A DNA stretch of 64,000 nt. Origin: an uncultured Clostridia bacterium (GTDB taxonomy: Bacteria > Bacillota > Clostridia > TANB77 > CAG-508). The stretch covers positions 8,101-72,100 of the forward strand of contig CANQWF010000001.1 of assembly GCA_947627485.1 (NCBI GenBank). Reading direction: 5' to 3'. The notes under the pieces were generated by a model. The model saw nothing but the letters and a program-made list of their open reading frames with translations. It was not told where the DNA came from and did not search any database. The position numbers and the translations under genes are program-made. Below, piece after piece: positions 17,822 to 35,316 of this stretch; the stretch's first letter is position 1; the number at the start of each line of letters is the position of its first letter.

Positions 17822-19342
17822 TTAATGATTTACTATTTTTAATATTTTACTCACTGGTTTTTGAATTAAAGATTTTTCATAATCGTTTAATGCAAATAGC
17901 CACAATAATATTGAATATATTAATGTATATAATAAAATTTTTACTCCAATAAAAATTATATTAGAAGATGGATATATATTATTAATTAAAAGAGTAGGTA
18001 TAAAAATTATTATTATAGGAATAGACATTTTAAATATATTTTTCCAGAATTTTGGTATATTTATATTTGCCTTTTTATAATAATATATATTCATTATTAT
18101 CCATTGACCTAATAAACAGGCAAGACTTGTTCCAATTGCAGAGCCTATAGAACCAAACTTACGCGCAAGTGGTATGCTTATAAACAGATTCGCTATTGCT
18201 ATAAAAAAGTATACGACTGTTCTAAATCTATGCATATTTTTAGCTTGAAGTATATTTATTCCAACATTCTGTATTAGTGGAACAAGTGCGGGAACCATTA
18301 ATATTAATTCTGTCCAATAAGATTTATCATATCCATTTCCTGCCCAGATGTTAATAAATTCTTGCCCAAATATAATAAATCCAGTAGTTATAAGTGCCAT
18401 AATTATATATTGAAGTCTTCCCGTCTGAATAAATATATCTGATATAGTTTCATCAGATTCTTTGTTTTCAACAAGCATTGTTATTTTTGGAAGTAAAACT
18501 CCATTTATTGCAGTAGACAAAGAAATATATATTGTTTGTATTTGTGCTGCTACTGTATATATTGCAACTTCAACAGTTCCTACAACAGAACCTAAAATAA
18601 ATTGATCTATATTTAGGTTTATTTTATCAACAATTATTGCTAGAAATATAAAAAATGAATATCCAAATATTTCTTTAAGCAATTTTGTATTAAATTTTCC
18701 AAATGTAAATTTAATTTTTATTACTTTTAAGCAATATACTAAATTAATAATTAAAAAGGAAATATTTAATATTGTAGTAACAACAGTCATCGCAACAGAT
18801 TTATATCCCATATATAGTAAAGGAATCATAATGCAAGGCATCAAAATTATTCTTAATATATTAACTACTTTAGAAAAAATAAATTTTTCATATGCTGTTA
18901 TAATTGATCCAAAAATACTTAAAGGGAATGTAAATACTAAATTAATAATTAATATAATTGTCATTATTTTTGCTTTTTGTAATTCTTGAATTGTCATTGT
19001 ACCAGCAAATAATTTATCAATGTTAGCATAAAGTATTGCACCCATTATTCCAGATATAACACCAATTATAGAATAAATAATCAAAAACATTCCATTTAAT
19101 TTTGATTGTTCATCTATCTGATTTTTAACTCTATATCTTGATGTATATATAATTATAGCATTACCAAAGCCTAAATCTAGAACAGTTAAATATCCAATAA
19201 TTGATGAAATTAAAGAATATGTTCCATATTCAGATTGACCCATCATCCTTAACATTATAGGAGTATAAATTAATCCAACTAAAATGTTAAGAACAATCAC
19301 TATATAAGATAAAATACTTCCAATTTTTATTTGGCTTTTCAT
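17822..19342 (-). CDS. MOP-superfamily polysaccharide flippase (Wzx)
   Basis: ORF track, 506 aa, about 14 TM. Confidence 0.75.
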   Translation of the reverse strand: MKSQIKIGSILSYIVIVLNILVGLIYTPIMLRMMGQSEYGTYSLISSIIGYLTVLDLGFGNAIIIYTSRYRVKNQIDEQSKLNGMFLIIYSIIGVISGIMGAILYANIDKLFAGTMTIQELQKAKIMTIILIINLVFTFPLSIFGSIITAYEKFIFSKVVNILRIILMPCIMIPLLYMGYKSVAMTVVTTILNISFLIINLVYCLKVIKIKFTFGKFNTKLLKEIFGYSFFIFLAIIVDKINLNIDQFILGSVVGTVEVAIYTVAAQIQTIYISLSTAINGVLLPKITMLVENKESDETISDIFIQTGRLQYIIMALITTGFIIFGQEFINIWAGNGYDKSYWTELILMVPALVPLIQNVGINILQAKNMHRFRTVVYFFIAIANLFISIPLARKFGSIGSAIGTSLACLLGQWIIMNIYYYKKANINIPKFWKNIFKMSIPIIIIFIPTLLINNIYPSSNIIFIGVKILLYTLIYSILLWLFALNDYEKSLIQKPVSKILKIVNH

Positions 19343-19352
19343 AGTAAACTCC

Positions 19353-20519
19353 TTATTTTAGCCACATATTTTTTACAAGAAATTCATAAACTCTAGAACT
19401 TGAATTTTCATCTTGAAATTTATGTAATATTTTTTTAATATTCTCTCTTTCATGTTTTGCAATGTCATTTTCATTAGCAACATTATTTATAAAAGATTTT
19501 AATTCATCAAAATTATTAATATATTCTCCTTTAATTACATCAAATATATTATCAAAAGCAAAATCAAAAGTTGATTTATATTCATCAAAATCATCAGTGG
19601 TAATTGCAATTGGTTTATTTGTTAATAAATAATCATAATATACTGATGAATAATCTGTAATCAGTGCATCTGTTTGACCTAAAAATTCATATAGATTTAT
19701 ATTTTCATTTTTTAAATCTTGATTAGTAAGTAATATAAAATTAGATAATTTTTCTGTTTTAATTACTGACAAATCCTGAGCGGGATGTGGCTTTAAAACT
19801 AATAAAATATTAAGCTCATTTAAAAGATTATTTAAAACTCTAAGATTCTCAATGTTATAAATAATTGGAATTCCTAATTCAAAAGAATTTGTCATACTTA
19901 AATCTGAAATTTTATTTTCTCTTTGCCTATATGTTGGAAGCCATATAATGATTTTATCAAAGTTTTTATTTTTAAACATATTTCTAATATTTTTAGTTTT
20001 AGAAAATAAATCATCATTTCTAGGAAATCCCAAATCAATTATATTATCTTTATCTACATGACAAAGCTTAGATATTATATTATCAAAAAATGGAGATAAA
20101 CTTAAATAATAATTTACATCACCTATTGTATTACAATAATCTGCTACCAATTTATATGGTGCCCCATGAGATAAATATAGTCTTTTTTGATTTATATTTT
20201 TTTTATAAACTAATTTATTACAATCAATAATATATTTAGATTTAATATTTATATATAATTTTTTTATTTTTTCAAATATATTAATTTCTCCAAATGCATT
20301 AATAAAATAAACATTTTTTATATTAATATTTTTGTACATATTTTTATCATCTACAAACCAAAAAAGTTTATACTTTTCATTTACTTTATTTTTTAATAAG
20401 ATTTTAAATAAAGAATATGTATTATCAGTTAAATCTGGGTTGCTTTCTAATATTATATATTTTTTTAAATGTATAGGGAAATTATATATTAATTTTCTTA
20501 TTATTTTTTTCATAATCAT
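19353..20519 (-). CDS. CDP-glycerol glycerophosphotransferase (TagB/TagF family)
   Basis: ORF track; the C-terminal TagF catalytic region contains the family's conserved His/Asp motif (KPHP...ITDYSSV). Confidence 0.75.
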   Translation of the reverse strand: MIMKKIIRKLIYNFPIHLKKYIILESNPDLTDNTYSLFKILLKNKVNEKYKLFWFVDDKNMYKNINIKNVYFINAFGEINIFEKIKKLYINIKSKYIIDCNKLVYKKNINQKRLYLSHGAPYKLVADYCNTIGDVNYYLSLSPFFDNIISKLCHVDKDNIIDLGFPRNDDLFSKTKNIRNMFKNKNFDKIIIWLPTYRQRENKISDLSMTNSFELGIPIIYNIENLRVLNNLLNELNILLVLKPHPAQDLSVIKTEKLSNFILLTNQDLKNENINLYEFLGQTDALITDYSSVYYDYLLTNKPIAITTDDFDEYKSTFDFAFDNIFDVIKGEYINNFDELKSFINNVANENDIAKHERENIKKILHKFQDENSSSRVYEFLVKNMWLK

Positions 20520-21607
20520 TCCTCTGATTTATTTCTATTTTTTTTAACTCCGAAAATATCTTTATATCCAATGGCAACAATTGCTAAAACAAGAAGAGCA
20601 AATGATAAAGCTTTCCAAATTCCACTTTCTAACAATATAATTGCAAATAATCCAAATGTTGCACTTATTCCATATAAAATAAATACAGCTTGTTTTTGAG
20701 AATATCCTTTATCAATAAGTCTGTGATGTAAATGACCTCTATCTGCTTTAAAAACTGCTTTAAAAGACTTTTGCTTTATTATTCTTCTAAGTATTGCAAA
20801 AGATGTATCAAATATTGGTAGGGCAAGAACAAGCATAGGAGCAATTATAATAATTGCTGTATATGTTTTTGCAACACCTAAAATAGAAATAACTGCTAAT
20901 GTAAAGCCAATAAAATTGGAACCTGTATCTCCCATAAAAGTTCTTGCAGGATTAAAATTAAATGGTAAAAATCCAAGTAATGATCCTGCTAAAGCAGTTG
21001 CAAATATTATCGAAATAATAGGAGATGAGTTTAATATAAATATTATCATTAAACATATAGAAGAAATTAAAGAAACACCTGTAGAAAGTCCATCCAAACC
21101 ATCTATCAAATTTATTGCATTTGTTATTCCAACAATCCAAATAACTGTAAATATTTTTAAAAACAATTCGTTAGAAATAATAGTTCCAGCTCTTACAATA
21201 ATAATTTGATCCATAACTAATCCACTAGACACAACGATTATACTGGCTATAATTTGTCCCAATAATTTAACAAATGGATTTATTCCTTTTGTATCATCAA
21301 AATAACAAAAAATTTCTAATACTACTATTCCTAAAAAGAAGCCAATTAGTTTTATATAATATTTATTAGTAAATATATCTAATTTTTTTTCAATTATCAT
21401 AGTAATAATCAAATATATAGCTGAAATTAAAAAACCTAAAACAATTGCAATTCCACCAAGACGAGGCATTATTTTTTTATGAATTCTTCTTCCATCTTTT
21501 GGTACATCTAATGCCTTAACTTTTCTTGCAAGTCTTACTGTGTATGGTGTAAACACATAAGTAGTTATAAAAGCTAATAAGAATGTAATTGCAATATCTC
21601 CCCACAT
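20516..21607 (-). CDS. tagO: Undecaprenyl-phosphate N-acetylhexosamine-1-phosphate transferase (WecA/TagO, MraY superfamily)
   Basis: ORF track; 363 aa; multi-TM with a DD..D region (NLIDGLDG); first gene of the operon. Confidence 0.75.
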   Translation of the reverse strand: MWGDIAITFLLAFITTYVFTPYTVRLARKVKALDVPKDGRRIHKKIMPRLGGIAIVLGFLISAIYLIITMIIEKKLDIFTNKYYIKLIGFFLGIVVLEIFCYFDDTKGINPFVKLLGQIIASIIVVSSGLVMDQIIIVRAGTIISNELFLKIFTVIWIVGITNAINLIDGLDGLSTGVSLISSICLMIIFILNSSPIISIIFATALAGSLLGFLPFNFNPARTFMGDTGSNFIGFTLAVISILGVAKTYTAIIIIAPMLVLALPIFDTSFAILRRIIKQKSFKAVFKADRGHLHHRLIDKGYSQKQAVFILYGISATFGLFAIILLESGIWKALSFALLVLAIVAIGYKDIFGVKKNRNKSEE

Positions 21608-21643
21608 ATATAAGTCCCCCTAATTTTTTAATATTCCGTATAA

Positions 21644-21672
21644 ATTTTACCTTTAAAATGCAGTTTTGTCAA
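21644..21672 (-). promoter_or_regulatory. Putative sigma-A promoter of the minus-strand polysaccharide operon (TTGACA-17-TAAAAT)
   Basis: On the minus strand, TTGACA is at 21667-21672 and TAAAAT at 21644-21649. A GGGGGA RBS lies 8 nt before the ATG at 21607. Confidence 0.4.
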
Positions 21673-21697
21673 CACAATCAAGTGATAAACAAAATAA

Positions 21698-21731
21698 TTA
21701 GAGAGTAATTTTCAAGGAAATTACTCTCTAA
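21698..21731 (-). terminator. Terminator hairpin downstream of the VOC gene
   Basis: Perfect inverted repeat TTAGAGAGTAATT-TTCAAGGA-AATTACTCTCTAA. Confidence 0.5.
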
Positions 21732-21805
21732 TAAAATATTATCTAGTTAAATACCGATAATTACATGATAAATTATATAAATCAAAATTATCTAATATTA
21801 TCCGT

Positions 21806-22198
21806 TTATAAATGCTTTGCCTTTTCTTCTAATAATTCAATTAAACCTAAATCCCACATTAAGAAAGCAACCTTTCTATTGTTAAACAAAATTGCCTCTT
21901 TTGGTTCCCTAACAAGAAACGCACCATCCTGAATTAGGCTATTAATTGTTTTATCTATATCATCTACTAAATAACAAGTATGATATAAATATTGTCGTTT
22001 CTTTAATATATTATCAACTACTTTTCCAGAAATTAACTCGATTTTAACATTATCATCTAAAGTAATCATACATAAATTAGCATCTTGATTGGCATCATAT
22101 ACTGTTGCGCTTACATCAATAATATTAAAATACTTATCCAATTTTGATAATGTTTCTTCTATGTTATTTGTTGCTATTCCTATATGATGAAAATTCAT
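21806..22198 (-). CDS. VOC/glyoxalase-family protein
   Basis: ORF track, 130 aa; MNFHHIGIATNNIEE pattern. Confidence 0.65.
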   Translation of the reverse strand: MNFHHIGIATNNIEETLSKLDKYFNIIDVSATVYDANQDANLCMITLDDNVKIELISGKVVDNILKKRQYLYHTCYLVDDIDKTINSLIQDGAFLVREPKEAILFNNRKVAFLMWDLGLIELLEEKAKHL

Positions 22199-22354
22199 TT
22201 ATTTATCACTCCTAAATTCTTTTTTATATTTTTATAGTGGGCAAATTCAATATACTATAAACAACATAAATAGTCAATTAATTAAAATTTTAAAATATGA
22301 TTTGAGAAAATATATTTTATATTAACTATTTTTAATTATATAGTAAAGTTTTTA

Positions 22355-23392
22355 CTAACTACTATATTTTTCTAATAATTTATCAAAATCCTTATTAGTT
22401 AAATCTTTAAAATCATTTTTAAATCTAATATATTCACTGTTCCATGAAGAATCAATTTCATTTTTTTTATGGTTTGGTAAATCATAATTTTCTTTTAGAT
22501 ATTTTGCAAGATATATTGTAAATTTCGTTGATGCAAATGTATTTAAATGATGAGAATCATATAAATCATTTTTATAATCTATTTTATAATCTTCTAATGT
22601 ATTAAAATTAATAACATTTAAACCATTTTCTTTTATGATTGATTGTGATTCATTTAGTTTTCCAATTTCTGTTTCATTATAGCATCTTATTGGAACAATA
22701 AATAATACATTTAGATTATTAGTTTTAATATAATCTATTAAATTGATTAATGCTTGTTTGTTTTTTTCTTGTAATTCAATTGTATTCTCGTTCCAAGGGG
22801 TTTCGTTTTGAGAATGTATCATAGTCGTACCTTTTATCATACGATAACCTTTATAAAATTCTGAATGCCCAATAAAATCTTCTTTATCTATATTTTTCCA
22901 ACTATTATGATAAATGAAAAAACTAAAATAATGATTAATATATTCACTTTTATCAACATCTATATAATCTAGTAAATTATTAATTGCCTCTATTCTATTT
23001 TTAGAAAACTTTAAGGAATCTGTGGTTCTTCTGATATCTTCCGCGGTAACTCCTGTATAATCAGCTGTTATTCTTGATAAGTCTATAGCATATAATTTAG
23101 GACTTTGATATTTCTCCGACTCTTTAATAAGAAATTGGACTGATGGAAATGGTAAAGAGGCAGCAGCCAAAATTCCTGTTTTATATCCATACAAATTATA
23201 AGCTAATGTTGTATTAAAATGATTATAAGTTTCACTTGCTCCAATGTAAACTACATCTAAAGAATTTTTTGGTTCATTGTAAAAATCTTGAATACTAATA
23301 GTTTTATCATCTAGCCATAATATTTTAAATATAAAATAAAATAGAACAATAAAAACAAATAAAAACACTATACTTTTAATTAATCGTTTCAT
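22355..23392 (-). CDS. DHHW/AlgX-AlgJ-like membrane-anchored protein (SGNH-like, D-x-HH motif), a predicted extracytoplasmic partner of the MBOAT
   Basis: ORF track; N-terminal TM; C-terminal DLYDSHHLN motif; immediately downstream of an MBOAT. Confidence 0.5.
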   Translation of the reverse strand: MKRLIKSIVFLFVFIVLFYFIFKILWLDDKTISIQDFYNEPKNSLDVVYIGASETYNHFNTTLAYNLYGYKTGILAAASLPFPSVQFLIKESEKYQSPKLYAIDLSRITADYTGVTAEDIRRTTDSLKFSKNRIEAINNLLDYIDVDKSEYINHYFSFFIYHNSWKNIDKEDFIGHSEFYKGYRMIKGTTMIHSQNETPWNENTIELQEKNKQALINLIDYIKTNNLNVLFIVPIRCYNETEIGKLNESQSIIKENGLNVINFNTLEDYKIDYKNDLYDSHHLNTFASTKFTIYLAKYLKENYDLPNHKKNEIDSSWNSEYIRFKNDFKDLTNKDFDKLLEKYSS

Positions 23393-23410
23393 CGTATAAT
23401 TCTTATCCTC

Positions 23411-24943
23411 CTAAAAATTTTCATATATAAATCCAACAGGATTGTACCCTACACCATAACAACCGAATATTATAATTGCAAATATTAAAATATATAACAT
23501 TCCCCATCTAAATATTATATTTTGCTTAGATAATTTTTCTCTAACGCTACCAGTACGTGATAATTTATCTACAACAAATAAAGTTATTAATGAAATAATT
23601 AATATTCTAAAATCATATACATCTAACCCTGCAGTATATATTGATTTGTTATCTAGTAGTACCCAAGGATTCCATACAAACATATTTTTAATAATTTCTA
23701 TCGCATTTCCTACACTAGAAGCTCTAAAGAAAATCATAGCAAATGAAAATAAAAGATATGTTCTTATAACTTGGTACAATTTATAGCTAAAAACTTCTTT
23801 TCTTATACCTAATTTATTATTAATTTTATTAGAAATAGGTTCTAAGGTATCTTCTAAAAAGATAAATAAAAACTGTAATAGCCCTGAACCAATTATATAT
23901 GTATAAGCACCTCCATGCCAAATGCCAATTAATATCCACATAATTAACATTGAAAGGTATAAAGGTATTTTTTTGCCAATTTTCTTGCCAAAAATTTTCT
24001 TGCATTTTTTATTTAGTTTTTGCATAAAATTAGATTTAAGTAGGGGATAAAAAATGTAATCTCTAAGCCAAGCACCTAAAGTAATGTGCCAGTTTCTCCA
24101 AAATTCTGTAATAGTTTTAGAAAAGAAAGGTGCACTAAAATTTTCTGGAAGATGAATTCCCATTATCTCAGATATTCCCATAATTATATCAATTGAACCT
24201 GAAAAATTTGAATATAGTTGTAAAGTGAAAAATAGTACAGCAATTATTGTGTAAAATCCAGTATATGTAGCTAAATCACCATAGACTGTATCTACAAACA
24301 TACCAATCCTTTGTGAAATTACTAATACCTTAAAAACACCCCATAAAGTTCTAACTAAACCTCTACACATAGAATCATAATTAAATTTATGTTTTCCATA
24401 TAGTTCTTTTTCTATATTATTGTATCTAATAAAGGGTCCGGATGTAAGAATTGGGAAATAAGACATAAATAAGGCACATTTAAATATATTTCTTTGTGAC
24501 TTACATGCTCCACGATATATATCTACTAAATAACTAATCATAATTAAAGAATAATAACTTATTCCAACTAAAGAATTAAAATGTAATAATTCTAACTTAA
24601 AATCAATATGGAATAATTTTAATATATGATTAATAGTTATTGAAAACAAATTGGTATATTTTAAACAAATTAATTGTCCTAAAATTATTAGTATACCTAT
24701 AATTAAAAATATTTTTGATTTTTTAGTACTATCATGGTATTTATCTATTAATATACCAAAAACATATGAAGTTAATAAAACTACTAAAGCTTGTATAATT
24801 GTTGATATACTTAAATTATTCCAAAACAGAAATATAATACTTGATATAAGTAAAATAAACCATTGAAATTTTTTTGGGGATATAAAATATATACCTAGCA
24901 CAATTATACAAAACATTAAAAAAACTAATGATGTTAAATTCAT
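23411..24943 (-). CDS. MBOAT-family membrane O-acyltransferase (DltB/AlgI-like)
   Basis: ORF track, 510 aa, about 11 TM. It has a conserved His-containing segment (WRNWHITLGAWLRDY) and a later invariant His (GIWHGG). Confidence 0.85.
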   Translation of the reverse strand: MNLTSLVFLMFCIIVLGIYFISPKKFQWFILLISSIIFLFWNNLSISTIIQALVVLLTSYVFGILIDKYHDSTKKSKIFLIIGILIILGQLICLKYTNLFSITINHILKLFHIDFKLELLHFNSLVGISYYSLIMISYLVDIYRGACKSQRNIFKCALFMSYFPILTSGPFIRYNNIEKELYGKHKFNYDSMCRGLVRTLWGVFKVLVISQRIGMFVDTVYGDLATYTGFYTIIAVLFFTLQLYSNFSGSIDIIMGISEIMGIHLPENFSAPFFSKTITEFWRNWHITLGAWLRDYIFYPLLKSNFMQKLNKKCKKIFGKKIGKKIPLYLSMLIMWILIGIWHGGAYTYIIGSGLLQFLFIFLEDTLEPISNKINNKLGIRKEVFSYKLYQVIRTYLLFSFAMIFFRASSVGNAIEIIKNMFVWNPWVLLDNKSIYTAGLDVYDFRILIISLITLFVVDKLSRTGSVREKLSKQNIIFRWGMLYILIFAIIIFGCYGVGYNPVGFIYENF

Positions 24944-24967
24944 TTAATTCACCCACTCTGCTTTTTC

Positions 24968-25207
24968 TTATATTCTAGATTTTATAATATCGACCATTTC
25001 TCCAACATTTTTCATTGTTGTTACTTCATTCATATTAAATTTTATACCAAATTCTTGCTCAACTGCTACAACTAAATTGATATGCTCTAAACTATCCCAA
25101 TCTTCGATATCTTTAGATGTAGTTTCTGGTTTTACAACAATACTTTCATCATCAAATACATCTCTAAAAACAGTATTTAATCTTTCATAAATTTCTTCAT
25201 TTTCCAT
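24968..25207 (-). CDS. Acyl/D-alanyl carrier protein (phosphopantetheine attachment at Ser in DSLEHI)
   Basis: ORF track, 79 aa; DWDSLEHINLVVAVEQEFGI. Confidence 0.8.
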   Translation of the reverse strand: MENEEIYERLNTVFRDVFDDESIVVKPETTSKDIEDWDSLEHINLVVAVEQEFGIKFNMNEVTTMKNVGEMVDIIKSRI

Positions 25208-27007
25208 TATTCATGCACCTCTATAACATTATTTTTATTAGTATATCCTTTTGATATATCTAATTTATATATTTTATTACCCTGACTATCACAAGAAATT
25301 TCTTCAAATCCTTGTAAGTCATAAAAATTATTAACCATTTTATTTTTAAAGGTTGGATAATAATATCCATATATAGTTTTAATATTTTTTTCTTGAGCTT
25401 TTTTTACTAGCTCATCCATCATTGCAAATTCCATATTTCTTTTCAAAACCCTACAACTCATTATCCATAAATCAATATGCAATTCATCTTTGTTTTTTAT
25501 ATTTCCGATTACGACTGTTATTACACCGTTATCTCCAAAAATATCTTCTAATTTACCATATAACTTTATATAATTATCGTCTTTATCAACTTCTTCAATA
25601 TCTGCTAATGAATATCTTTTAGTTGTTAAATTAAATTGATTACTTTTATTACTTAGTTGAGAAATTCTTTCCAGATATATTGGTTTAAACGGTGATATTT
25701 CGGCTTTCATTTTTAATGAAAGCAAGTAATCTTCATAATTATCAAAAGTTGCCATCATTTGGCTTCTTTTTGCATTGTCTTTATACAATTCATTTTTCTT
25801 TAAATCTTCATTAGAAAAATTAGTAACTTCAAAATATCCATTATGATCAATTATTCTAATATAGTTTTCAGGGGCATCTATTTCTGGAGTGACTATTCCA
25901 TCAATATAATTTTTTACAATTTGTCTTTCTGCAGGGTTATCATCAACAAAAACAAAACTATCTGCTCCTAAATTTAGTTCTTCAGCAATATCTTTTATAT
26001 TTAAATTTTTAGGATTCCAATTTGCTTTAATTATAATGAAATCATCAGGTTTTAATGTTCCTGCAGGATGGTTAAGTCCTGCAATTGCATTTTCGTATTC
26101 ATTTTTAGAATTTACATTTAAAATAACACCCAAAGATTTATGTTCTTTTAAGTAATTTTGAAATTCAGAATAAACTTGTCCACTAGGAACTTCTGGTCCA
26201 ATAGCTAGATTTTCTACTCCGTCATCTCCAACTATTCCACCCCATAAAGTATTATCTAAGTCTAATACAAAAGCTTTTTTATTCTTTCCATATATAGATT
26301 TTATAATATTAGCTATATTAAACGATAAATAAGGTATTGCTGGAACTTCCATTGCATATTTATACATATGCCAATAAAATTGGTTAGCCCATTTATCTAA
26401 TCCATAGCATGATGATACATAATTAATATCATTTATAAAAAAGTTTTTTGTACTATTCGCGTAATCATAAAATTTTTGATTTAATCTTGTAATAAAATTT
26501 ATTTTTCCATGAATATCACTTGCATCTTTATTACCCAACAATCTATAATATGGATATTCAAAATTATTTTGAATAATTGTAGCATTAAATTTAGAGAAGA
26601 GTTTATCCCACATTCTCTTAAATTTTTCATATTCACTACCGAAGCATTTCATTTATAGTTTTATCATCATCGTACATTGTAGGAAATTGTACAATATTTC
26701 TATTAGTAGTGTGGATGTAAATTATATCAGGATTAAAATTATCTAATTCTTCATTACCAAACATTGCATCTTCATAAAACTTGTTATATTCAGATTCATA
26801 AAAATTAGGCTTTATTCCATTGTTTAATAAAAATATTTCTAACATGTTTTTAATTTCGCTAGTTGTGGAACCACCTAAAATGGCTATATTTTTTTCAAGT
26901 AGGTTTGGATTTAATAATAATTGCTTTTTTATTTTTTTCTTATTTTTAATTAGATAATTAACATCAAAAGGATATTCTAATTCTTTCATTTTATCACTCC
27001 AAAACAA
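25207..27007 (-). CDS. FkbH-like protein (HAD-IIIC phosphatase domain plus C-terminal acyltransferase-like domain), broken by a +1 shift at an in-frame CGG (~26639-26641)
   Basis: Track ORFs 26636-27007 (ends TINEMLR*) and 25207-26652 (VLDLDNTLWGGIVGDDG HAD motif I). A shift of one base joins them as ...EMLGSEYEKFKRMW..., about 604 aa, which is the typical FkbH length. Confidence 0.7.
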
Positions 27008-27351
27008 GTTTATAAACTTTAATAAGATTAAGATTTTACATTTTTATTCATAAAATATAAAATCTATAAATTAAGCAAAATGATTATATTCTAATCGACG
27101 TAAATTGTCAATAGATTTTGGAATTAAATAAAATGCAAATCGAAATTATGCTATTTTTATTCTTTTATAAATTTTATTGTTTTTTTAACATATTTATTGT
27201 ATAATACAGCATAGGGAAATTTGTAAATTTTAATAAAAAAATATGTTATGGTTGCATAAAAATGGTATTGATGGTAAAATACTTACGGATTATGACATAA
27301 TCTATTATTTTACTACAATATTATAAGTTTATAAAAACGGAGGTATATTAA

Positions 27352-28065
27352 ATGAATTATGGAGGAATATTAGCAGGTGGAATTGGAAGAAGGATGGGAA
27401 GGAGTGATCTTCCTAAACAGTTTTTAATGCTAGGTACTAAACCGATTTTAATCCATACAATAGAACAATTTTTAGTTTCGAGTGAAATAGATAAAATAGT
27501 ATTAGCAGTTCCGCAAAACTGGAAATCTTATGCAGAAGATTTAATAAAAAAATATTGTCAAAGTGATGATATAGATATTATAAGTGGTGGAGAAACAAGA
27601 AATGATACTATTCTAAATATATGTAATCATATAAAAGATACATATGGATTAAATAATGATGATATTATAGTTACACATGATTCAGTAAGACCATTTATAA
27701 CTCAAAGGATAATTAAAGATAATATAGAAATTTGTAAATCAACAGATGCTGTAGACACTGTAATACCTGCATATGATACTATTGTAGAGTCTAAAGACAA
27801 TAAAAAAATATCAAGTATTCCTATAAGGGATTATATGTATTTAGGACAAACTCCGCAGACTTTTAAAATACAAACATTTATTAAAGTATATTCAACATTA
27901 ACAAATGAAGAAAAGAATATTTTAACAGATGCTTGCAAAATGTTTGTAATCAAAAATAAAGAAGTTAAAATAATAATGGGAGAATCGTACAATATAAAAA
28001 TTACTACGCCATATGATTTAAAAATGGCAAGTCTTATGTTAGGAGAAGAATATAAAGATGATTAA
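27352..28065 (+). CDS. tarI: Ribitol-5-phosphate cytidylyltransferase (IspD/TarI family)
   Basis: ORF track; GGILAGGIGRRMG nucleotidyltransferase motif; paired with a TarJ-like reductase. Confidence 0.75.
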   Translation: MNYGGILAGGIGRRMGRSDLPKQFLMLGTKPILIHTIEQFLVSSEIDKIVLAVPQNWKSYAEDLIKKYCQSDDIDIISGGETRNDTILNICNHIKDTYGLNNDDIIVTHDSVRPFITQRIIKDNIEICKSTDAVDTVIPAYDTIVESKDNKKISSIPIRDYMYLGQTPQTFKIQTFIKVYSTLTNEEKNILTDACKMFVIKNKEVKIIMGESYNIKITTPYDLKMASLMLGEEYKDD

Positions 28066-34031: not shown

Positions 34032-35316
34032 ATGAATAAAAATATTTTAGTATTCCCATGTGGTTCAGAAATAGGATTAGAAATTAATAATGCTTTAAAA
34101 TATGAAAAAGATATTACATTATTTGGGGCTTCTAGTGTTAATGATCATGGACGAATGATTTATAAAAATCATATAAAGTTGCCTTATTTTAAGGATGATA
34201 AATTTGAGAATGAATTAAACAATACAATAAAAAAATATAATATTGATTTTATTTTTCCCGCTCATGATGATTTAGTATTAGAATTTTCTAAAATGGCAAA
34301 AAAATTAGATGCACAAGTCATAACATCAGAGTATGCAACTTGTGATATTTGCCGTTCAAAGAAAAAAACTTATACTTTTTTTAAAAATAAAGATTTTGTA
34401 CCACATATGTATAATACCATAGAAGAAGTAAAAGAGTATCCTGTTTTTTTAAAACCAGATATAGGACAAGGTTCCAAACGGTTGTGTAATTGCTAATAAT
34501 AAAAAAGAATTACTATATTATACTTCTCGTGATACATCTTTACTTATGTTAGAATATTTACCTGGTAAAGAATATACTATAGATTGTTTTACTGATAGGA
34601 ATGGTGAACTTAAATTTGCAGGAATTAGACAAAGAAAAAGAATTAAAAGTGGAATAAGCGTTAATTCAATTACCCAAAAGTTACCTGATGAAATAAAGAA
34701 AATTGCTCTAGAAATAAATCGTAAATTAAAGTTTCAAGGAATGTGGTTTTTCCAAGTAAAAATCGATGCTTGCGGTAACTATAAACTTTTGGAAATGGCT
34801 CCAAGAATAGCTGGAACGATGTGTTTATATAGAAACCAAGGAATTAATTTTGCTTTATTAAGTGTTTATGATAAAATGGGATATGATATAAGTATATTTA
34901 ATAACGATGTTAATATTGAAGTTGACAGAGCTTTAACAAATAGATTTGTAATAGATTTTGATTATGATACTATATATATTGACTTTGATGATACTATAAT
35001 AAATAAAAATACAGTTAACCCATATGTAATGATGTTTTTATATCAATCTATAAATAAAAATAAAAAAATATTTTTAATAACTAAACATATAAAAGATATA
35101 AATAAATCATTAAGTCAATACAAAATTAGTTCAGATATTTTTACCCAAATTATACATATTAGTAAAAATGAGGAAAAATATAATTATGTAAAAAATTATG
35201 AAAAGGCTATATTTATTGATGATTCTTTTCAAGAAAGAAGAATTATTCACGAAAAATTCAATATACCTTGCTATGCTGTCGATATGATTGAAAGCCTTAT
35301 AGATTGGAGAAATTAA
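34032..35316 (+). CDS. ATP-grasp ligase fused to a HAD-like domain, broken by a +1 shift at an in-frame CGG (~34479-34481)
   Basis: Track ORF 34032-34496 ends PVFLKPDIGQGSKRLCNC*. A one-base shift continues GCVIANNKKELLYYTSRDTSLLMLEYLPGKEYTIDCF... into track ORF 34546-35316. The C-terminal ~110 aa (IDFDDTIINKNTVNPY...) is HAD-like. Confidence 0.6.

Follow-up and report, generated by a model that had tools for sequence, protein, structure and literature searches.

Here we describe a predicted surface-acylation module in a 64,000-nucleotide stretch of DNA (the window) from an uncultured Clostridia bacterium (assembly GCA_947627485.1, contig CANQWF010000001.1, positions 8,101 to 72,100). The module is an operon of six open reading frames (ORFs), making up five genes, on the minus strand. 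They encode an FkbH-type enzyme in two fragments, a small acyl carrier protein (ACP), a membrane-bound O-acyltransferase (MBOAT), a protein of predicted SGNH fold and an enzyme of the VOC family. The genes and the landmarks of the first gene are as follows, lengths being in amino acids (aa).

21806-22198, minus strand: VOC/Glyoxalase_4 protein, 130 aa; PF13669 (Glyoxalase_4), 59.8 bits against a cut-off of 27
22355-23392, minus strand: DltD-like SGNH protein (predicted fold), 345 aa, with an N-terminal transmembrane (TM) helix
23411-24943, minus strand: MBOAT, 510 aa; PF03062, 31.6 bits against a cut-off of 27
24968-25207, minus strand: carrier protein, 79 aa; PF00550 (PP-binding) and several ACP models
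25207-26652, minus strand: main fragment of the FkbH-like protein, 481 aa; TIGR01686 and TIGR01681 above their cut-offs
25450-25458, minus strand: conserved-cysteine motif SCR in the C-terminal GNAT-fold domain
25933-25944, minus strand: HAD motif DDNP
26101-26109, minus strand: HAD motif SKN
26248-26262, minus strand: HAD motif DLDNT
26636-26644, minus strand: frameshift junction CTT CGG TAG, a 1-nucleotide insertion relative to intact homologues
26636-26989, minus strand: N-terminal fragment of the FkbH-like protein, 117 aa, the first half of the FkbH_N alpha/beta domain; weak match to FkbH_N positions 2-69

The genes lie at the coordinates and in the order given by a preliminary description of this DNA, which listed an FkbH-like protein, a carrier, an MBOAT, an extracytoplasmic protein and a VOC enzyme on the minus strand. 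Its assignment of the first gene to an FkbH/HAD-IIIC loader with an acyltransferase-like C-terminus is borne out by both profiles, the TIGR01686 FkbH domain (249.8 bits, cut-off 146.65) and the HAD-IIIC model TIGR01681 (61.3 bits, cut-off 35.75), and the C-terminus has the GNAT fold. The 481-aa fragment completes the N-domain and continues with the HAD-IIIC phosphatase domain and the C-terminal GNAT-fold domain. The DLDNT, SKN, DDNP and SCR motifs are invariant or nearly so across 30 diverse homologues, and the enzyme finds a structural match in 3SLR (E 1e-48). In work on OzmB the conserved cysteine is reported to be the acyl-enzyme residue. FkbH enzymes use 1,3-bisphosphoglycerate and a stand-alone ACP to form glyceryl-S-ACP (PMC7489565).

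The start codon of the carrier gene overlaps the FkbH stop codon. The carrier has a phosphopantetheine serine (Ser39) in a DSL motif at 25088-25096, and its closest solved structure is 2LML, a putative ACP. The FkbH-like three-domain family to which the loader belongs is very large, with 13,374 clusters (50% identity) at E<=1e-3 and 4,665 at E<=1e-30. The clade of the window shares only 32-55% identity with the other FkbH-like clusters that were retrieved. One protein of 2554 aa (P0332) was considered as a link to FkbH domains embedded in polyketide synthases (PKS) and was rejected; it is a radical-SAM fusion with no assembly line.

The loader gene had been described as a single ORF of 604 aa, but it is made up of two ORFs that overlap and are read in different frames. 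Homologues with an intact gene are colinear, 593 aa long and begin MKELEYPF, which matches the ATG at 26989 of the window. The N-terminal fragment starts at this ATG, which has GGAG upstream, and ends at a TAG at 26636-26638. Alignment with the intact homologues places the frame change after residue 116, and comparison of the DNA reveals one extra base at the junction relative to every intact relative examined. In an AlphaFold model of an intact homologue (predicted local distance difference test, pLDDT, 91.4) the break interrupts helix 109-134, within the N-terminal alpha/beta domain.

The same 117+481 split is present at the same chromosomal position in rabbit-gut sibling genomes (L086, GCA_947628465.1; L088, GCA_947630255.1) and in the contig L004. 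The junction is identical in the window, in L004/L088 and in L086/L087, which represent three haplotypes from different samples. The 481-aa form is represented by five distinct sequences in its database cluster, from NCBI and ENA assemblies. Sequencing error was ruled out as the cause of the frameshift, since the insertion and junction recur in assemblies made independently and the 481-aa form is known in five versions. A 480-aa homologue (P0232) was also considered as an independent split at the same site; this was ruled out because the frame is continuous there in L085 and the gene call starts late.

The N-terminal fragment is 96-98% identical to its counterparts in the sibling genomes. Between the window and L004 its synonymous divergence (dS) is 0.95 and its ratio of non-synonymous to synonymous divergence (dN/dS) is 0.065. 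The corresponding values are 0.40 and 0.034 for the 481-aa fragment and 0.31 and 0.18 for the MBOAT, and the ACP differs by 10 synonymous and 0 non-synonymous changes. Because the junction is conserved and the divergence mostly synonymous, the split is judged to be old and both halves of FkbH to be under purifying selection. These patterns indicate that FkbH remains functional, whether as two chains or by way of +1 recoding at CUU-CGG-UAG. Slippage by +1 would yield ...NEML-GSEYEKF, which lines up exactly with the intact homologues, and CGG accounts for just 7 of the 530 arginine codons in the window. Known +1 frameshift sites include CUU-AGG-C of Ty1 and CUU-UGA-C of prfB. The junction, with its slippery leucine codon, rare arginine codon and stop, resembles these sites, and by this analogy recoding is offered as a tentative hypothesis that we consider rather unlikely. 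No stimulatory element was found at the junction in the sample of three haplotypes, and a metagenome scan returned no further copies of the junction.

The MBOAT was correctly recognized as DltB/AlgI-like in the preliminary description. It matches PF03062, and its closest solved structures are those of DltB (8JEM/6BUG, E 2e-14). The histidine motifs are kept (WHITL at 24077-24091 and IWHGG at 23909-23923). The protein ends in ...GFIYENF, of which FIYENF (23414-23431) fits the FxYxxF acyl-tyrosine shuttle motif. In work from 2023-2025 this motif is located on the DltX microprotein of Dlt systems and, in PatA-type systems, fused to the MBOAT, its tyrosine handing the acyl group on to the SGNH partner (PMC12148441). 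A C-terminal FxYxx[F/Y/W] is present in 46 of the 48 complete MBOATs that adjoin FkbH-ACP pairs.

The 345-aa protein had been assigned to the DHHW/AlgX group, an assignment that did not hold: neither PF14286 nor PF16822 (ALGX) matches it even at E<=10. No sequence match was found for it in the PDB. An AlphaFold model based on 30 homologues (pLDDT 92.5) has the SGNH fold with DltD as the best structural match, PatB and the C-terminal domain of OatA being farther down the list. A GASE block with Ser53 lies at 23231-23242 and a DSHH block with His282 at 22547-22558, which is the canonical serine-then-histidine order of SGNH proteins. Ser53 is nearly invariant, and Gly51 and His282 fully so. On this model the protein is predicted to be a membrane-anchored, extracytoplasmic SGNH-fold transferase resembling DltD.

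Some related loci contain more than one such transferase. Tandem DltD-like SGNH paralogues surround a single MBOAT, five of them in L007 (10012-17770) and three in L009 (10019-15113), which suggests one membrane shuttle that would serve several acceptor-specific transferases. At L001 (10024-12620, GCA_947581805.1) the MBOAT and SGNH genes, of the class A type described below, are fragmented beside an intact FkbH-ACP pair, and an intact second pair of MBOAT and ALGX genes lies immediately upstream together with an ISL3 transposase fragment. This looks like the replacement of one export arm by another.

Synteny was sampled with one genome per species, which gave 80 loci with 47-89% identity to an intact homologue as query. 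The neighbourhood check of module conservation proposed in the preliminary description came out in its favour: the FkbH-ACP-MBOAT-SGNH linkage is kept across many species and several phyla. The ACP gene directly follows FkbH in 63 of the 80 loci and is on the same strand in 73, while an MBOAT gene is present in 56. Flanks of at least 5 kb on each side are available for 45 loci, of which 35 have the MBOAT. The closest loci are from rabbit-gut metagenome-assembled genomes labelled uncultured Clostridia or Bacilli, and others come from Lachnospiraceae, Oscillospiraceae, Ruminococcus, Eisenbergiella tayi DSM 26961, Odoribacter splanchnicus, Synergistaceae and Endomicrobia. The module was seen in Clostridia, Bacteroidota, Synergistota and on the pSymB replicon of Sinorhizobium meliloti.

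Two architectures recur. Class A modules, to which the window belongs, have the order FkbH-ACP-[tailoring]-MBOAT-DltD-like SGNH. Class B modules have the order MBOAT-DHHW-FkbH-ACP, and the partner in these is a true DHHW/AlgX protein (PF14286, 183 bits). The persistence of the linkage across phylogenetic distance, through shuffling of the gene order and replacement of the SGNH class, is strong evidence from comparative sequence that the parts work together.

In a tblastn search of plasmids, 40 S. meliloti records match the loader. In an annotated strain the order on pSymB is VOC, an MBOAT ending in FLYQGF, a 409-aa protein, ACP and the FkbH-like protein (L091 3792-9671; CP140883.1 1049937-1055816), and the counterpart in strain 1021 lies around 631 kb of NC_003078.1. 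The 409-aa protein is TM-anchored, contains GGST and DPGH blocks and is a relative of the MBOAT-adjacent proteins of Clostridia; its annotation as a 'TonB-dependent receptor' is at odds with these blocks and the anchor. A class II aldolase gene is located upstream of the S. meliloti module. An FkbH-like gene with 58% identity, and an ACP gene after it, were also found at the end of a 75-kb contig from human faeces deposited as 'UNVERIFIED: Bacteriophage sp.' (L092, MT835480.1 71374-73400). The pair has no clear phage context and may be misclassified or serotype-converting cargo, and it was the sole match bearing on phage carriage.

The last gene of the operon is a VOC-family enzyme, as had been described, since the Glyoxalase_4 profile is above its cut-off. 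Its closest solved relatives, 2QH0 and 3HDP (E 2e-16), were deposited as glyoxalase I / lactoylglutathione lyase, and the H/E/H/E metal-ligand positions are kept relative to 2QH0. Similarity to methylmalonyl-CoA epimerase (MMCE) is weak, and scores against equivalog models are far under the cut-offs (MMCE, 30.2 against 115; GlxI, 21.9 against 120). By analogy with these relatives the protein is probably a tailoring enzyme that acts on a 2-hydroxyacyl thioester. A VOC gene recurs within the module at other loci, including that of S. meliloti.

Class A modules contain either the VOC gene (10 loci) or genes for a MaoC dehydratase and a short-chain dehydrogenase/reductase (SDR) (at least 10 loci). 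The two options are not strictly exclusive. Among the sibling genomes the window has VOC, L086 has MaoC and SDR, and L088 has MaoC, SDR and VOC together with a second SGNH gene. The core of these three genomes is similar, with 96-98% identity in FkbH, 97-100% in the ACP and 87-88% in the MBOAT, and the neighbouring TagO-like and Wzx genes are 88% identical. Their SGNH proteins are just 46-51% identical to one another. In the sequences the pattern is one of a constant loader, carrier and membrane core with a variable periphery of chemistry and acceptor. Both cassettes would fit the chemistry of a 2,3-dihydroxyacyl thioester. Some FkbH-ACP loci have instead a split transketolase (N and C halves) and an aldo-keto reductase (L013 13886-15618, L014, L030, L035, L040 and L047), which may point to another acyl unit on the same carrier, either a two-carbon (glycolyl-type) one or one modified in some other way.

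We consider it probable, with moderate confidence, that the module carries out carrier-protein-dependent MBOAT-SGNH O-acylation of an envelope polymer with a hydroxy-acid derived from glycolysis. By analogy with the activity of the FkbH family, the FkbH-type enzyme would dephosphorylate 1,3-bisphosphoglycerate and place the glyceryl group on the phosphopantetheine of the 79-aa ACP. The VOC enzyme would then alter the 2-hydroxyacyl thioester by acting on the acidic C2-H, most plausibly as a C2 epimerase. In sister loci MaoC and SDR, in place of or beside VOC, may convert glyceryl-ACP to lactyl-ACP. As in DltB/DltX and PatA, the DltB-like MBOAT would move the acyl group from the ACP at the cytoplasmic face to the tyrosine of its own FIYENF at the outer face. 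The serine of the DltD-like SGNH protein would accept the group and esterify the acceptor polymer.

The preliminary description had predicted the transfer of a glyceryl or hydroxyacyl group rather than D-alanine to a cell-wall polymer made by the flanking loci. The hydroxy-acid part of this prediction is kept. With VOC here and MaoC and SDR elsewhere, the transferred group is probably tailored, and plain glyceryl is one option. The Dlt-like logic also held, while the tie to the flanking polymer is by position. The acceptor in this genome is probably a polyol-phosphate or wall polysaccharide from the flanking operons. Because the module is found in Odoribacter and Sinorhizobium, which are Gram-negative, teichoic acid is not an obligatory target and the class of acceptor is not fixed.

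Several observations weigh against this interpretation. What is transferred, to which polymer and in which direction is read from the genes alone. TIGR01686 is a broad subfamily-domain model that does not fix the substrate, and the characterised FkbH, OzmB and tetronate enzymes were compared through family models rather than directly. The carrier gave no match to DltC, and the MBOAT reaches 138.6 bits against the DltB model TIGR04091, which is under the cut-off of 375. In 10 of the 45 full-flank loci (about 22%) the FkbH-ACP pair occurs without an MBOAT, so the loader serves other pathways too. The FkbH gene of the window is frameshifted, and on the structural model a two-chain enzyme would need to reassemble its N-domain.

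This last point leads to the view that the module is dead in the window genome, with an FkbH pseudogene in a decaying operon, and is perhaps functional in relatives with intact 593-aa genes. In favour of this view, a one-nucleotide insertion splits the gene within an N-domain helix, the second ORF (481 aa) has no obvious Shine-Dalgarno sequence, and the fragmented MBOAT and SGNH genes beside the intact FkbH of L001 offer a precedent. Yet at least three haplotypes from different samples share the insertion and junction, both fragments have changed mostly at synonymous sites, and the ACP, MBOAT, SGNH and VOC ORFs are all intact. We therefore regard a dead module as improbable. A different objection concerns the fate of the acyl-ACP, which might be consumed in the cytoplasm to N- or O-acylate a nucleotide-sugar or lipid-linked repeat, the MBOAT and SGNH protein being an ordinary acetyl-CoA O-acetylation pair in the same glycan locus. 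What makes this very unlikely is the recurrence of the linkage: it is seen in 56 of the 80 loci, one per species, spans phyla, involves two unrelated SGNH classes and survives in rearranged orders, which is beyond chance co-location. In the window the ACP and MBOAT genes are 24 nucleotides apart in what is predicted to be one transcription unit. The only solved relatives of the MBOAT, and its only NCBIfam match, are DltB, an MBOAT that uses a carrier protein. The cytoplasmic alternative draws on the full-flank loci that lack an MBOAT and on the FkbH-ACP pairs that are found beside the split transketolase and aldo-keto reductase or beside unassigned proteins. It also draws on Campylobacter jejuni, in which an FkbH-domain gene lies in the flagellin glycosylation locus and the dimethylglyceric-acid pseudaminic acid is presumably made in the cytoplasm, and on the known MBOAT/SGNH systems other than Dlt, which take acyl-CoA (PMC12148441).

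The system may also operate as proposed with an acyl group that is not derived from glycerate. The loader could use another phosphorylated or activated acid, or the VOC enzyme could make lactoyl-ACP from methylglyoxal and holo-ACP. The product of glyoxalase I / lactoylglutathione lyase, as which the nearest solved relatives of the VOC enzyme were deposited, is a 2-hydroxyacyl thioester. The domain-level scope of TIGR01686 and the 32-55% identity of the clade to other FkbH-like clusters also speak for this possibility. All HAD catalytic motifs and the conserved cysteine are kept, however, and the recurring MaoC and SDR are chemically sensible only on a 3-hydroxy or 2,3-dihydroxy acyl thioester. 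In the loci examined VOC is always beside FkbH and never in its place. We regard a non-glycerate acyl group as unlikely and prefer glycerate as the source of the group that the module would transfer.

The setting of the module includes the following features on the minus strand.

27111-27083, minus strand: promoter-like site TTGACA-17-TATAAT, 12/12; a match to the sigma-70-type consensus alone
21732-21697, minus strand: intrinsic-terminator-like hairpin with a 15-bp stem and T-run, at the 3' end of the module transcription unit
21672-21644, minus strand: promoter-like site, 11/12, after the terminator and ahead of the TagO-like gene

The site at 27111-27083 lies in a divergent intergenic region and is the sole perfect promoter consensus in 19000-28000; the promoters were called by consensus match, and weaker matches are frequent in AT-rich DNA. 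With promoter and terminator bracketing 27111-21697, the module is predicted to be its own transcription unit.

The preliminary description placed the module between two polysaccharide/teichoic-acid operons, and genes of both types were identified in the flanks. In profile searches the minus-strand genes downstream encode a TagO/WecA-type GT4, a TagF-like glycerophosphotransferase, a Wzx flippase and a Wzy/O-antigen-ligase-like protein. The same flank also has glycosyltransferases, TagA/WecG, DUF6020 and UDP-GlcNAc 2-epimerase. The plus-strand flank encodes a TarI-like cytidylyltransferase, a TarJ-like dehydrogenase, three TagF-like enzymes and an ABC transporter, and farther along the window are genes for an LCP ligase, MurF and Ddl. 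The G+C content is about 25%. Given this gene content and G+C, the region around the module is taken to be a wall-glycopolymer island of a Gram-positive-type organism.

Two other regions of the window were noted. At 34032-35316 a 154-aa ORF with no Pfam match is followed, after a gap of 50 nucleotides, by a 256-aa ORF whose match covers only part of an ATP-grasp profile. The pair may be another gene of the glycopolymer island that is split or truncated, and a full ATP-grasp gene (40673-41779) and two genes for DegT-type aminotransferases are located close by. At 50296-55389 there is a GC-poor patch (18-20% against about 26%) with four genes. One codes for a Bro-N/PDC-S13-like protein (343 bits in PADLOC), one for a protein with an HD domain and one for a calcineurin-like phosphoesterase; the fourth product is an AAA ATPase of 631 aa that weakly matches LmuB, PtuA, DndD and PbeC. 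This patch could be a mobile or defence islet, or contain an SbcCD-like pair. A release-factor gene (55636-56697) directly follows it.

MBOAT-SGNH systems set surface charge, recognition by phages and antibodies, and resistance to lysozyme or antimicrobial peptides. Dlt is so far the sole known system of this kind that is fed by a carrier protein. If the proposed function is true, the module would be a second logic of donor supply and would add glyceroyl, lactoyl or a related group to envelope polymers as a new ester substituent. It would also contradict the current generalisation that MBOAT/SGNH pathways other than Dlt have no carrier. The route would be widespread in gut bacteria, and the fast-evolving SGNH proteins and swappable tailoring genes resemble a serotype-diversifying device in gut commensals. 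All of these elements may belong to one widespread, undescribed envelope modification, a carrier-fed O-glyceroylation or O-lactoylation that is switched by cassettes (VOC, MaoC and SDR, or transketolase/aldo-keto reductase), with a hypervariable, sometimes tandemly amplified SGNH protein that sets the acceptor and, in the lineage of the window, a +1-recoded loader, in gut Clostridia, Bacteroidota, Synergistota and rhizobia. We give this joint reading slightly less than even confidence. The presence of the module on pSymB of S. meliloti, a genetically tractable rhizobium, and in the cultured E. tayi DSM 26961 makes the hypothesis directly testable.

The preliminary description knew of no characterised surface polymer decorated by such a route, and our literature search agrees: no published description of the FkbH-ACP-MBOAT-SGNH combination was found, although many subscription-journal papers lay outside its reach and an earlier description is possible. 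Among bacterial surface glycans, a precedent for an acyl group derived from glycerate, with an FkbH-domain gene nearby, is found in C. jejuni. Its flagellin contains a dimethylglyceric-acid derivative of pseudaminic acid (PMC3068675), and cj1302 is an FkbH-domain gene in the flagellin glycan locus (PMC7099621). We infer a tie between cj1302 and the glyceroyl group in that organism. The C. jejuni pathway differs from the module in that no MBOAT/SGNH export route is known for it and the acylation presumably takes place in the cytoplasm on a nucleotide-sugar.

The conversion of the carrier-bound group has a parallel in the loading module of the bryostatin PKS BryA (DH-KR-FkbH-ACP), which is said to provide a D-lactate starter through a proposed glyceryl to pyruvoyl to lactyl conversion on the carrier. 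The MaoC and SDR cassette of the sibling loci mirrors this proposed conversion. The enzymes of the module are discrete rather than PKS domains, and the window has VOC in place of the DH/KR pair.

The FkbH enzymes of polyketide pathways (FK520 methoxymalonyl-ACP and the tetronate 'glycerate-utilisation' operons) share with the loader the FkbH and HAD-IIIC models, the HAD motifs and the cysteine. Stand-alone ACPs next to FkbH-type genes are also known (Mad7/Mad8 and Mad14/Mad12) (PMC7489565). In contrast to these pathways the module has no PKS, FabH-like or oxidising enzymes, its acyl-ACP is predicted to feed an MBOAT, and the gene in the window is split.

The export arm resembles PatA/PatB and AlgI/AlgJ/AlgX, in which the MBOAT has FxYxxF fused at its C-terminus and acts together with an extracytoplasmic transferase of SGNH type that is a protein of its own. 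The FkbH-ACP loci of class B even use a DHHW/AlgX-like partner. According to a mechanistic paper of 2025, MBOAT/SGNH pathways other than Dlt have no carrier protein and use an acyl-CoA donor (PMC12148441). Here, by contrast, an ACP and a dedicated loader are syntenic and predicted to be co-transcribed with the MBOAT, and the partner in the window is DltD-like rather than AlgX/DHHW.

The module departs from Dlt in several respects. Its loader is an FkbH/HAD-IIIC and GNAT enzyme in place of the adenylating enzyme DltA, and profile searches found no adenylation-domain protein in the operon or the flanks. The carrier is ACP-like rather than DltC-like, and the MBOAT does not reach the DltB cut-off. 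Its C-terminus includes the shuttle motif, for which Dlt systems have a separate DltX microprotein. The predicted acyl group is a hydroxy-acid rather than D-alanine, and the tailoring enzymes (VOC, or MaoC and SDR) are additional. What the two systems would have in common is the architecture of transfer: a phosphopantetheine-thioester carrier as the donor to the MBOAT, a membrane protein whose nearest solved relative is DltB, an FxYxxF motif and a membrane-anchored SGNH protein that best matches DltD. The preliminary description had drawn this parallel, with FkbH in the place of DltA, and the confirmed domain identities agree with it.

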